Source of the DNA: Escherichia phage vB-Eco-KMB26
Reading direction: 5' to 3' (one strand)
Length of the DNA stretch: 64,000 bases
Sequence record: OR539218.1
Shown: positions 196 to 4,961 of the stretch, in pieces
Layout of the letters: every line of letters starts with the position of its first letter
How positions within the stretch are numbered: position 1 is the first letter of the stretch
Translations under genes and position numbers: made by a program
The notes under the pieces: generated by a model
Databases searched by the model: none
What the model saw: the letters and a program-made list of their open reading frames with translations, nothing else
What the model was told of the DNA's origin: nothing

Positions 196-726
<531 letters not shown>

Positions 727-1182
727 TTAAAAGAGGCTGTTCATTATTCGGTAAAGTGAAGGACCCATCACATATTGCCACTGAGTACGAGGAATAAGAG
801 CAAAAGCATCCATCTCTGGAATCATAACGCCATCTTTATTTTCAAAATAAGACTCGCAATGGCAATTTCTAAACATCTCATGCTCTACTGGAATCGTATA
901 ATAAAATAACTGTAAGTCTTTATTACTAGAATATTTAAATACACCTAGGTCTTCTAGAAGGTCTGGATTATAATTGCTAAAACCGGTCTCTTCTAAGCAT
1001 TCTCTTTTTGCAGCTTCCAGTGCATTCAAATCAGAACTTTCTACGCGGCCCTTTGGAATATCCCAGCGATGTGCCATCATTCCAGGCTTACGAGAACCAG
1101 TAACCCGACCCATAAATAAATCTTTATCTTCTGTCATAAAGATAATACCAGCTGATAGTGTTTTCATTTTAATTTCCTGCAT
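727..1182 (-). CDS. nudE: Nudix hydrolase (T4 gene e.1 / NudE-like)
   Basis: 151-aa ORF with Nudix box GRVESSDLNALEAAKRECLEETG (REx2EExG); position matches T4 e.1. A second ATG at 1165-1167 with AGGAAA SD may be the true start. Confidence 0.85.
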   Translation of the reverse strand: MQEIKMKTLSAGIIFMTEDKDLFMGRVTGSRKPGMMAHRWDIPKGRVESSDLNALEAAKRECLEETGFSNYNPDLLEDLGVFKYSSNKDLQLFYYTIPVEHEMFRNCHCESYFENKDGVMIPEMDAFALIPRTQWQYVMGPSLYRIMNSLF

Positions 1183-1652
1183 TCAGTGATAAAGTTATTT
1201 AAATTTTGAGTATATTTCTTTTCATCAAAAATCTTTTGTTGTCTGCGTAAACGCCATGGCATTTCAATGAACATACGCCATATTCCTGATAATACTGCTG
1301 CTGTAAAAATATTAACAAGTATAGTTAAAAGAACCCAATCTCCTATTCTGTCCATTGGATTTTTTATAAAAAAGTAAAATACGAACGATGATATAGGAAG
1401 ACTAATGATATACCACAGAAGAACCTTCTTATCTGTGAACCAATCAGCATTCGTTAACTTAGCGCGACCGTTTTGAATACATACGAACTTATCATCTGTT
1501 ACAGTAAATGGCTTAGCTGCTTGATATCCCATTCTAAACTCCCTAATCAACAAATTTTTCATATCTTCGGAACAACCATTCCAGTCAACTCTATCAACTG
1601 AAATGCCATCGTCCCCATCATCTAAATCATACCAGCGAGTTTTTAAAATCAT
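1164..1652 (-). CDS. Small membrane protein: N-terminal soluble domain, two predicted TM helices, basic tail ending FITECRKLK
   Basis: 162-aa ORF, ATG start overlapping the upstream stop (ATGA), hydrophobic stretches LLWYIISLPISSFVFYFFI and WVLLTILVNIFTAAVLSGIW. Confidence 0.7.
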   Translation of the reverse strand: MILKTRWYDLDDGDDGISVDRVDWNGCSEDMKNLLIREFRMGYQAAKPFTVTDDKFVCIQNGRAKLTNADWFTDKKVLLWYIISLPISSFVFYFFIKNPMDRIGDWVLLTILVNIFTAAVLSGIWRMFIEMPWRLRRQQKIFDEKKYTQNLNNFITECRKLK

Positions 1653-2011
1653 TTAATTTTCCTACAATCACTCACAAACTCTTCCATTGATTCTTTTTCA
1701 ATATAAGACATATAGCTATTATATTCCTTTAATTGTATTTTGTAATCCTTTTTTCTTTGCCAATTTATTTTAAAATTATCATAATGAAAATATAACATGG
1801 TACCAAAGAATGAAAATAATGAAATCGCTATAGTAAAACGAAGTTCACTCCAAACCTCTGTTATAATTACTGTGCCGTCGATATTTAAAATAAAACAGTC
1901 AATTAACAATCCAATAAGACTACCCGCAAGAGCTGTAAATACTGATACAGCAAGAATTAATAGTGCCTCAGGAAACGAATATTTGACTTTATTTAGTTTT
2001 GGCTTTTGCAT
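1649..2011 (-). CDS. Small two-TM membrane protein, tail ending EEFVSDCRKIK
   Basis: 120-aa ORF with ATG start; hydrophobic segments ALLILAVSVFTALAGSLIGLLI and FTIAISLFSFFGTMLYF; coupled start/stop with neighbours. Confidence 0.7.
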   Translation of the reverse strand: MQKPKLNKVKYSFPEALLILAVSVFTALAGSLIGLLIDCFILNIDGTVIITEVWSELRFTIAISLFSFFGTMLYFHYDNFKINWQRKKDYKIQLKEYNSYMSYIEKESMEEFVSDCRKIK

Positions 2012-2385
2012 CGTGATTCCTTAACAAATTTCATAATTTCATCAAATTCATACATATCTAGCTTAAGCTGGTGTTCCTTTTTAATCTTTTTACACTGAGC
2101 TTTCCAATCACGTACACGTTTACGATAATGTCTTCCTTGATACCAGTATCCTACCCAATTTACGGGTACTAATAAAAGTGGAACTATTAATGGAAGAATT
2201 AGCATTAACACAAGTATTTCGCCAGAATCAATATCAGTCATAACATCTAAAACACCTCCAATAATCAATAGAATTACAAATGATATGAGTATAACAGGAC
2301 CTATTAACACATCAGTAGAAATTATCTGACGCTTTGGTTCATACTTCACAGGTTTACTTGGAAGGTATAGTGATGGTTTTGACAT
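1993..2385 (-). CDS. Small two-TM membrane protein, tail ending MKFVKESRCKSQN
   Basis: ORF track starts at a TTG (2406); first ATG is at 2383-2385 (MSKPSLY...) with AAGGAA SD upstream; two hydrophobic helices. Confidence 0.65.
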   Translation of the reverse strand: MSKPSLYLPSKPVKYEPKRQIISTDVLIGPVILISFVILLIIGGVLDVMTDIDSGEILVLMLILPLIVPLLLVPVNWVGYWYQGRHYRKRVRDWKAQCKKIKKEHQLKLDMYEFDEIMKFVKESRCKSQN

Positions 2386-2968
2386 ATTCTCTACATTCCT
2401 TAACAAATTTTTCTAGTAATAAATCACTTTCAAAATTGGGATTTTCTACAAATTTATCAAAAAGATCATCAACAATAGTTAAGATATTCTTTTTACTAAG
2501 AATACGTTTATTTTCATGCTTCGTTTCAGAATCAACTATAAGAGTAAAGAAATATTTCTTGCCCTGAAATTTTACAGTAGTATCAATATAAAATAAATTT
2601 GACTTTTGTAAATTACGTTTAAACCATGCGTCACTTAAACTATAAACACCGAGATAATCAAAATCGTCGTTTAAATAACAAACCGTCCATTCAGGAGAAA
2701 TGAAATCAGTAAATTCAACATCAAAATCACACGTCAATGAATGAATTGATTCAATACTGTTAATGAGTATTCCAGGACGTATTAAAGACTTTTTACCTCT
2801 AGAAAATCTTCCGGAAAGGCTTTCATCAGTTTCATATGAAGACCCCCAATAGTAATTACGTCCTTCTGCCATGCGTTTAAGAGCATTTAGTAATTGGTCT
2901 GGAACATCAACCTGTCTTTGGAACTCTTCAAACATTGAATTGAAATCACTTTGCATTTTCATTTTCAT
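2354..2968 (-). CDS. Hypothetical protein (204 aa), soluble; C-terminus EKFVKECREYVKTITIPSK
   Basis: ORF with three in-frame ATGs at the N-terminus (MKMKM...); GGAG upstream; no recognisable catalytic motif. Confidence 0.65.
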   Translation of the reverse strand: MKMKMQSDFNSMFEEFQRQVDVPDQLLNALKRMAEGRNYYWGSSYETDESLSGRFSRGKKSLIRPGILINSIESIHSLTCDFDVEFTDFISPEWTVCYLNDDFDYLGVYSLSDAWFKRNLQKSNLFYIDTTVKFQGKKYFFTLIVDSETKHENKRILSKKNILTIVDDLFDKFVENPNFESDLLLEKFVKECREYVKTITIPSK

Positions 2969-2985: not shown

Positions 2986-3007
2986 ATAAGGGGCCGAAGC
3001 CCCTTAT
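2986..3007 (-). terminator. GC-rich hairpin between the 197-aa and 204-aa ORFs (weak terminator or RNA-stability element)
   Basis: ataaggggc-cgaa-gcccctt at palindrome; the same hairpin sequence recurs at 42718-42735; no clear U-run on the transcribed strand. Confidence 0.3.
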
Positions 3008-3009
3008 CA

Positions 3010-3603
3010 TTATTTCAGAGAATTAATGTATTCCTGAACATCGGCAGAGGTAGTTTCAACCCCAGAAATATTACCGTTAAAGGTTTCAACTCGAGCAAGG
3101 GTATCTTCAATATCAACCTTAGTCAGTGCTGCAATTTCAACTACATCATCGGCAGTACTAATTCCAAGGGCATTTGCTGCACGAGTTTCACGGATATATT
3201 CCAATTTAACCGCAAGTTCTTGACGAGCATCATCTAACTCAACTACTTTCTTGGCGATTTCAATTCGCATTTCAGCATAACCGTCAGCCTTAGTAGTCAA
3301 CTGCTCAGCTGTTCGACGATATAGTAAACCGAGTTTAGCATGCATTGTTACATCTTGGCCTTCGGAAAGAAGTTTACGAATTTCACGCTCTTTTGATTCG
3401 GCCTGTCGATTCTTTTCGATAACAAGTTCACGAATACGTTTTTCTTCGTTAATAGATTTAACAGAAGCAGTTTTTAGATCTTTAATTTTATCAAGTAGTT
3501 TTGCTGCTGCAGCAGTATACTGTTCTTCGACAGATAGATTTTTAGCCATAGCAGAACCAAGTTTAGTGCGAATAAACTCAACAATTTTCTTCAGTGTGTT
3601 CAT
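3010..3603 (-). CDS. Coiled-coil protein with PspA/IM30 (phage-shock protein A)-like C-terminal signature
   Basis: 197-aa ORF, ATG with AAGGA SD; helical, charge-rich; C-terminal [24 protein letters not shown] resembles the PspA QAANSS..LDSGKLDEAMARFESF region as I recall it. Confidence 0.55.
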
Positions 3604-3646
3604 AGTATTTCCTTAGGTTAATTGAGATTTAAAATCCATGAGAGTA

Positions 3647-4156: not shown

Positions 4157-4186
4157 TTCATTCTCCAAGTTGTTTTTGTATCAGTA

Positions 4187-4278
4187 GTTGATAGTTGTAT
4201 AGTACCATGGAAGAACAGGGATGTAAACAGTTGTTGATAGTTGTATAGTACCATGGAAGAACAGGGATGTAAACAGTT
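4187..4278 (-). promoter_or_regulatory. Tandem duplicated sigma70-type T4 early promoter (2 x ~46 bp)
   Basis: Direct repeat gttgatagttgtatagtaccatggaagaacagggatgtaaacag at 4187-4230 and 4233-4276; each copy reads on the reverse strand TTTACA-N17-TACTAT. Confidence 0.6.
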
Positions 4279-4405
4279 TTGTGAAAAAATTTTTTAAAAA
4301 GTTTTAGGGAATTCTAGGGCAGGGAGGGGCAATTAAAAGATAGGATAATATATTATAAAGGGTAGAAACTAAATGATGTCTAGAGAGGCCCGGAAAGGCC
4401 TAGAT

Positions 4406-4436
4406 ACCAAAAAGCCCCAACCTTTTGGTCGGGGCT
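4406..4436 (-). terminator. Rho-independent terminator after the IP-like gene
   Basis: Hairpin agccccaacc-tttt-ggtcggggct at 4413-4436, followed on the reverse strand by a U-run (plus-strand aaaaa at 4408-4412). Confidence 0.6.
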
Positions 4437-4443
4437 AAGAATG

Positions 4444-4953: not shown

Positions 4954-4961
4954 TATTTATA
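4954..4961 (-). promoter_or_regulatory. T4 late promoter box (TATAAATA, reverse strand) upstream of the IP-like gene
   Basis: Plus-strand tatttata 37 bp upstream of the ATG at 4917. Confidence 0.5.

Follow-up and report, generated by a model that had tools for sequence, protein, structure and literature searches.

Gene e.6 of a T4-like phage, a probable divergent relative of the PspA/Vipp1 family with a host-strain-specific requirement

Gene e.6 is situated in a 64,000-nucleotide stretch of DNA from Escherichia phage vB-Eco-KMB26 (sequence record OR539218.1), hereafter the window, to whose first nucleotide all coordinates refer unless another phage is named. The source genome is T4-like (Tequatrovirus), and its DNA is 99.9% identical to that of Escherichia phage KarlGJung (Bas37) and of Yersinia phage PYps14T. 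The lysozyme gene e occupies positions 196..690, and upstream of it on the same strand lie nudE, e.2, e.3, e.4, e.5, e.6, e.7, and e.8. From the evidence given below we consider e.6 to be, with high probability, a very divergent phage relative of the PspA/IM30/Vipp1 family of bacterial ESCRT-III-like proteins. Its open reading frame (ORF) runs from ATG to stop and specifies a 22.1-kDa protein with neither Cys, Trp, nor Pro. The product is charge-rich and helical, as a sequence-only reading of this DNA had already described it: Lys, Arg, Asp, and Glu make up 34% of its residues, and AlphaFold2 predicts ca. 85% helix. The gene and the predicted parts of its product are as follows:

3010..3603, minus strand: e.6 (ORF of 197 codons; named e.6 in T4-type records; PHROG 1203; PspA/Vipp1 homology)
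3610..3615, minus strand: TAAGGA, a Shine-Dalgarno-like element read from the sequence, 6 nt 5' of the e.6 ATG
3538..3600, minus strand: codons 2-22, predicted N-terminal amphipathic cationic helix (a0 equivalent; AlphaFold2; aligned to PspA a0 by HMMER and hhalign)
3169..3531, minus strand: codons 25-145, predicted long hairpin (a1, 25-80; turn, 81-85; a2/3, 86-145; AlphaFold2), bearing the significant PspA/Vipp1 similarity
3016..3153, minus strand: codons 151-196, three predicted short C-terminal helices (AlphaFold2), possibly shortened a4/a5, including the block cited in the sequence-only reading

The gene is called e.6 wherever GenBank records name it, and PHROG 1203 is listed as 'unknown function'. 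By tblastn the gene occurs in at least 1,099 phage records, at identities down to about 32%, among phages of Escherichia, Klebsiella, Shigella, Aeromonas, Enterobacter, and others. The family is kept across the Straboviridae and Ackermannviridae and is compact: an exhaustive HMMER search of 1.84 billion protein representatives returned only 45 clusters, nearly all of 195-209 amino acids, and all members traced belong to phage genomes or phage-like contigs. The remotest of them come from the Ackermannviridae (Kuttervirus, Taipeivirus; 155-160 kb phages of Klebsiella, Salmonella, and Serratia). No PspA-like name appears among the listed GenBank records of T4-like phages, where the product is a 'hypothetical protein' or a 'host specificity protein'. 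In many GenBank records the homologs read 'host specificity protein (ACLAME 1259)' (e.g. locus L001, 3711-4304), and one UniProt entry has 'Tail completion protein'; we regard both labels as unsupported, the former deriving from an automated ACLAME family name, and the e.6 RNA being early. In RB43 (locus L009, 2855-3447) the homolog is broken into a 54-residue N-terminal ORF and an 87-97-residue C-terminal ORF, of which the latter alone carries the e.6 annotation; either the gene is frameshifted or a pseudogene, or the sequence is in error. Phage records rarely contain canonical full-length PspA/IM30 genes: there are two unverified gut 'Bacteriophage sp.' contigs (H96 and H97), and BFVD holds an annotated PspA/IM30 protein of Acinetobacter phage vB_AbaM_ME3 (A0A172Q0S7). 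The main phage-borne PspA-type branch found in our analysis is the e.6 family.

The sequence-only reading had claimed kinship with PspA/IM30 and had proposed a search against PF04012 (PspA_IM30) as a check. With the single e.6 protein this search gave no match in Pfam, even at E<=10, which, read literally, speaks against the kinship; the single protein likewise had no PspA-type match in NCBIfam, nothing useful in PADLOC, and no phmmer match in the PDB. A profile from our first, shallower alignment (at least 47% identity) reached Vipp1 at sub-threshold values only (E 1.8-4.4). The kinship was borne out with a diverse alignment of 38 family members, with identities down to 18%, whose diversity came from the search of 1.84 billion proteins. 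Eight of the nine best PDB matches of its profile are Vipp1/PspA chains, headed by Vipp1 at E 1e-4, in which residues 1-146 of e.6 are paired with residues 1-147, collinear from residue 1. For the reverse side of the comparison we assembled a PspA/Vipp1 alignment of six diverse and four close sequences; a search with E. coli PspA had given near-identical enterobacterial sequences only, and tblastn against plasmids and phages a few distant ones. Aligned with each other by hhalign, the two families match over 200 columns with 93.2% probability (E 2.9e-7), and on the PspA side the alignment takes in residues 1-219 of 222. With either alignment reversed, or with the PspA columns shuffled (more than 30 times), the scores were 9-18 against 51.6 for the true pair, and the probabilities were below 1%; coiled-coil composition therefore is not the explanation of the match.

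PF04012 is also matched directly by five of the 38 family members. Two of these, P0185 and P0186, both from Ackermannviridae phages, score 35.1 and 39.0 bits, above the gathering score of 33.9, with residues 6-146 on profile positions 2-143. Both are full-length members of the e.6 family (E 1e-21 and 3e-20 with the e.6 profile; BLASTP ca. 5e-12 to the window protein), and their N-termini (..KRIFRIAEANVN..) visibly resemble that of PspA (..SRFADIVNANIN..). Two papers had reached the same relationship: in one (PMC7862958), the e.6 homolog of Klebsiella phage Metamorpho matched PspA (4WHE) at 99.9% by HHpred, and the other tied phrog_1203 of Salmonella phage SeF3a to PspA by HHsearch against pdb70 and proposed a role against abortive infection (Abi) (PMC9409062).

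Judged by these alignments, the significant similarity is that of residues 1-146 (helices a0-a3), and the extreme C-terminal helix also is collinear: the last helix of e.6 (185-197) falls on PspA 202-214, a pairing that ranks 7th among 38,850 pairings of 13-mers. The hhalign alignment has an 11-residue gap in a2/3 of e.6 and compresses the C-terminal helices (a4/a5), and its pairing of the C-terminal region with a4/a5 is of low confidence. The sequence-only reading had taken its evidence from a C-terminal block. The local similarity there is real, since residues 163-175 against PspA 159-171 (GKLDEAMARFESF) give an ungapped BLOSUM62 score of 24 (rank 18 of the 38,850 13-mer pairings, partly on its own diagonal), but it is not the source of the homology signal: with the family profile it ranks 56th of 38,850, non-collinear 13-mer pairings equal or beat its score, and hhalign places this region some 12 residues differently, again with low confidence. 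Divergence is considerable throughout. In our PspA/Vipp1 alignment E23 and P25 are invariant and D24 is nearly so; the A-E-D-P-x-K motif of the a0-a1 junction is missing in e.6, which has K-N-L-S-V-E at the aligned positions. Most PspA-invariant residues are lost, and the conservation profiles of the two families correlate weakly (rho 0.16, p 0.03).

The AlphaFold2 model, built on the 38-sequence alignment, has a mean predicted local distance difference test score (pLDDT) of 83 and a predicted template modelling score of 0.66. It places helices at residues 2-22, 25-80, 86-145, 151-160, 165-174, and 186-196, the first three of which are covered by the collinear HMMER and hhalign alignments to residues 1-147 of PspA/Vipp1. 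The hairpin helices (25-80 and 86-145) are modelled at pLDDT 89-98 over most of their length. For helix 2-22, modelled at a pLDDT of only about 60, the hydrophobic moment is 0.45, to be compared with 0.49 in PspA and a range of 0.43-0.61 in PspA/Vipp1; the pattern is family-wide, and the moment is not significant against shuffles (529 of 5000). The net charge of the N-terminal helix is +4, versus 0 to +2 in PspA/Vipp1. A comparison of the model with PspA/Vipp1, also proposed beforehand, agrees with the kinship in helix layout, and the top nine Foldseek matches in the PDB are all Vipp1 chains. The predicted helical fold alone is not specific for PspA/Vipp1; the fold match to ESCRT-III proper is no better than that to BAR or SMC coiled coils.

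The expression of e.6 appears to be governed from upstream of e.8. The neighbouring features that bear on it, together with the gene next downstream, are:

4182..4273, minus strand: two tandem 46-nt units upstream of e.8, each with a sigma-70-like TG-extended promoter (TTTACA-17-TACTAT)
2986..3007, minus strand: G+C-rich hairpin GGGGC-UUCG-GCCCC (sense strand), just past the e.6 stop and before e.5
2354..2968, minus strand: e.5 (204 amino acids), immediately downstream of e.6; no recognisable domain

The two promoter sites span 4199-4273, a hairpin resembling a terminator (4413-4436) lies shortly upstream of them, and the tandem units are the probable early promoters of an e.8-e.7-e.6-e.5 transcript. 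The units are 98% identical copies of each other, only one copy being present in the closest relatives listed (Bas37, PYps14T, fFiEco06, and others), and a doubled early promoter may thus drive the e.8-e.5 block, e.6 included, in the source phage. The hairpin at 2986..3007 is designated a 'terminator' in some GenBank records; it is without a U-tract on the sense strand and probably is an RNA-stabilising or partial terminator element. On the minus strand, T4 late-promoter motifs (TATAAATA) occur immediately upstream of e (704-711 and 717-724) and at 4954, with none between 725 and 4953. In time-resolved omics of T4, e.6 is an early RNA and a middle-class protein (PMC9697503); the protein therefore is made, yet it is not co-regulated with lysis.

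The phenotype of e.6 depends on the host strain. In T4, knock-down by CRISPRi-ART had no fitness effect (PMC11879866), and in the 2025 transposon screen HIDEN-SEQ (preprint, doi 10.1101/2025.11.20.689424) the gene was non-essential, with insertions in 43 of 43 TA sites. The same preprint covers Bas37, whose bas37_0240 and bas37_0239 are 100% identical to the e.6 and e.5 proteins of the window. On E. coli K-12, bas37_0240 was non-essential (42 of 44 TA sites hit), and so was bas37_0239. In competition on the uropathogenic strain CFT073, the mean insertion count in bas37_0240 dropped from 634.7 to 6.1 (log2 fold change -6.49, adjusted p 0) and that in bas37_0239 from 318.4 to 24.9 (log2 fold change -3.62), while genes 0236-0238, 0241, and 0242 were unaffected. 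We infer that polarity does not explain the e.6 effect, because upstream insertions, in e.7 and e.8, are neutral, and the loss is greater for e.6 than for e.5, which lies downstream. The log2 fold changes of bas37_0240 and bas37_0239 are -0.39 and -0.09 on CFE299, and -0.20 and -0.08 in a further isolate sheet (by its position, CFE331). As regards anti-defence genes, the literature thus has e.6 as dispensable on K-12 and needed on CFT073. The HIDEN-SEQ authors made clean deletions of both bas37_0240 and bas37_0239 and set candidates against cloned defence systems, of which SanaTA was the only one from CFT073; no pairing was reported for either gene, and PspA is never mentioned in the preprint.

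Homology joined to phenotype gives a concrete, testable hypothesis. That e.6 is a membrane-protective effector we judge to be evenly poised; more tentatively, we propose that e.6, possibly with e.5, could provide counter-defence by an ESCRT-III-type membrane repair against a membrane-permeabilising Abi or toxin system of CFT073. The suggestion in the sequence-only reading that the protein counters membrane-disrupting defences fits the CFT073-specific requirement. In the proposed course of events, e.6 would be transcribed early from the sigma-70-type promoters upstream of e.8, with the protein building up in mid-infection. Its cationic amphipathic N-terminal helix would bind the cytoplasmic face of the inner membrane, as does that of PspA, and the protein would form, by polymerisation via its a1-a2/3 hairpin and C-terminal helices, a coat to seal leaks, limit proton leak, and preserve the proton-motive force (PMF). 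T4 infection brings about host shut-off, and induction of the host psp operon by T4 is weak or partial relative to PhiX174; because the Psp response of the infected cell is weak at best, the phage would supply an effector of its own. Such a protein would be dispensable on K-12 and needed wherever infection provokes a membrane insult, on CFT073 most plausibly from a membrane-targeting Abi or toxin system, with e.5 possibly acting alongside it in Tequatrovirus. Screens of T4 against RexAB and one antiphage system that signals by cyclic oligonucleotides (CBASS) named other genes as hits, which argues mildly against a generic anti-depolarisation role, though rII may mask such an effect.

Among the alternatives, the one that survives best is that e.6 mimics PspA towards host proteins rather than acting on lipid, as a decoy or antagonist: it could co-polymerise with host PspA and poison it, bind PspF or PspBC, or be a decoy for a defence that uses PspA as its platform. 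The hairpin that e.6 retains corresponds to the oligomerisation and PspF-binding part of E. coli PspA, a strain-specific requirement suits a specific protein target, and loss of many PspA-invariant residues is what one expects if PspA's own job was dropped. There is also a documented precedent in Bacillus, where a type II CBASS cyclase is kept inactive by conjugation to PspA. On the other hand, the psp operon belongs to the core genome of E. coli, and K-12 has it, so that a role directed at host PspA is not obviously specific to CFT073; sigma-54/PspF regulation is of little value after a T4-type shut-off; and the conserved cationic amphipathic N-terminus points to lipid binding. We consider this mimicry unlikely.

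Still less probable in our estimation is a service to lysis timing, whereby e.6 would stabilise the inner membrane against premature holin triggering or support lysis inhibition, as its place 'next to the lysis gene' had suggested in the sequence-only reading. Holin triggering is sensitive to collapse of the PMF, which proteins of the PspA family preserve, and e.6 does share a gene block with e; it lies, however, 2.3 kb away, with five genes between (nudE and e.2-e.5). The lysis link lacks support on further counts. Transcription of e.6 is early, and whereas e has two late promoters at 704-724, e.6 has none of its own; insertions in e.6 and its knock-down are cost-free on K-12, where lysis timing matters equally; and the requirement is host-strain specific. 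The closeness to e is incidental, because other phage lineages have e.6 at other positions: between nrdD and nrdG in RB43, after gene 31 in Aeromonas phage 65, and between the gp41 helicase and DNA ligase genes in the Ackermannviridae. The third alternative, a convergent coiled-coil composition in an unrelated helical scaffold or adaptor, or in a virion 'host specificity' component, has already been largely refuted by the sequence comparisons and is very improbable, seeing that reversed and shuffled profiles of the same composition and periodicity stay below 1%, that three independent methods are collinear from residue 1, that two family members exceed Pfam's curated cutoff, that early transcription argues against a virion component, and that the GenBank labels go back to an automatic ACLAME family name unaccompanied by evidence.

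Conserved gene neighbourhood was considered as a functional clue and rejected, the context being different in T4, RB43, Aeromonas phage 65, and the Ackermannviridae. In the window, the neighbourhood of e.6 holds no PspB/C/F-like or LiaI-type partners, and e.2-e.5, e.7, and e.8 have no Pfam, PADLOC, or informative PHROG match; a PDB search with e.5 also was negative. Gene e.5 is confined to Tequatrovirus and close relatives and is not co-distributed with e.6, being found in 643 records versus at least 1,099 and missing in many lineages that carry e.6; its role could be that of a partner to e.6 or of an independent host-specific factor. Genes e.2-e.5 (1164-2968, minus strand), four in a row with overlaps, end in a similar C-terminal tail, (L/M)xxF(I/V)x(E/D)(C/S)R, and the 3' ends of e.4 and e.5 share an identical 16-nt string (2016-2031 = 2395-2410); they may be distant paralogs or carry a common recombination or translational-coupling element. 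The long hydrophobic stretches in e.2-e.4 resemble membrane-spanning segments, and the T4 annotation has e.2 and e.4 as predicted membrane proteins (PMC9697503). Bas37 carries an extra 564-nt ORF, bas37_0243, between e.8 and a 157-residue ORF (locus L013, 4358-5285, versus 4169-4443 in the window). This ORF is 'Essential' in HIDEN-SEQ (1 of 48 TA sites hit) and absent from the window and from PYps14T, which suggests an addiction, immunity, or homing module.

Already in print (PMC7862958, PMC9409062) are the e.6 gene, its homology to PspA, and the hypothesis of an anti-Abi role, and the phenotype stands in a supplementary table of the HIDEN-SEQ preprint; a link between the homology and the CFT073 phenotype, or any mechanism for e.6, was not found in the literature examined. 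Within the ESCRT-III superfamily of membrane-remodelling proteins, PspA/Vipp1 proteins constitute the bacterial branch, and the manner of their membrane protection in the cell is still debated. A small viral version with an on/off phenotype (insertions about 100-fold down on CFT073) would be a handy genetic handle on this question, and could help to show how phages cope with membrane-targeting immunity. Should the proposal hold, e.6 would be the first PspA/ESCRT-III homolog from a virus for which an infection phenotype is defined, and would represent a new class of anti-defence in which damage is repaired rather than a sensor or effector inhibited.

With E. coli PspA (PF04012; PDB 4WHE), e.6 shares the order of its elements (N-terminal amphipathic helix, a1/a2-3 hairpin, and, less surely, C-terminal helices) and a similar charge content (34% versus 37% in PspA). 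It differs in being 25 residues shorter, in the charge of its N-terminal helix (+4 versus 0), and in lying outside a psp operon, under phage early promoters instead of a sigma-54/PspF promoter. Vipp1/IM30 (Synechocystis sll0617; PDB 7O3W, 8QFV, 6ZVR) provides the best PDB matches of e.6 both by profile and by Foldseek; identity is 14-18%, and the C-terminal extension of Vipp1 has no counterpart in e.6. Vipp1 forms rings, rods, or carpets, and the comparison with e.6 is one of sequence and predicted model. Towards ESCRT-III proper (Snf7, archaeal CdvB) there is no sequence-level signal, nor is there evidence of a Vps4-type ATPase or a MIM motif for e.6. The closest in kind are the e.6-like proteins of the Ackermannviridae (Kuttervirus, Taipeivirus; e.g. 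Salmonella phage SeF3a Gp_125, P0186), which belong to PHROG 1203 and match at full length with 23-25% identity (E ca. 1e-11); they differ in a more PspA-like N-terminus (RIFxxxEANVN, against RFADIVNANIN in PspA), in reaching PF04012 directly, and in having membrane-anchored proteins downstream rather than e.5. In these phages (loci L007, 6614-7383; L011, 3497-4383; L012, 3646-4334) there come, downstream of the e.6-like gene, a conserved protein of ca. 180-240 amino acids, with a hydrophobic segment near its N-terminus and no homology to e.5, and then a hydrophobic protein of 51-60 amino acids, an order reminiscent of PspA with PspB/C or LiaH with LiaI. Finally, rIIA and rIIB of T4 have no sequence relationship to e.6, and their target is known, but they offer a functional analogy: they too are non-essential early genes, needed only on hosts with the membrane-depolarising Abi system RexAB and seen in the same type of screen.
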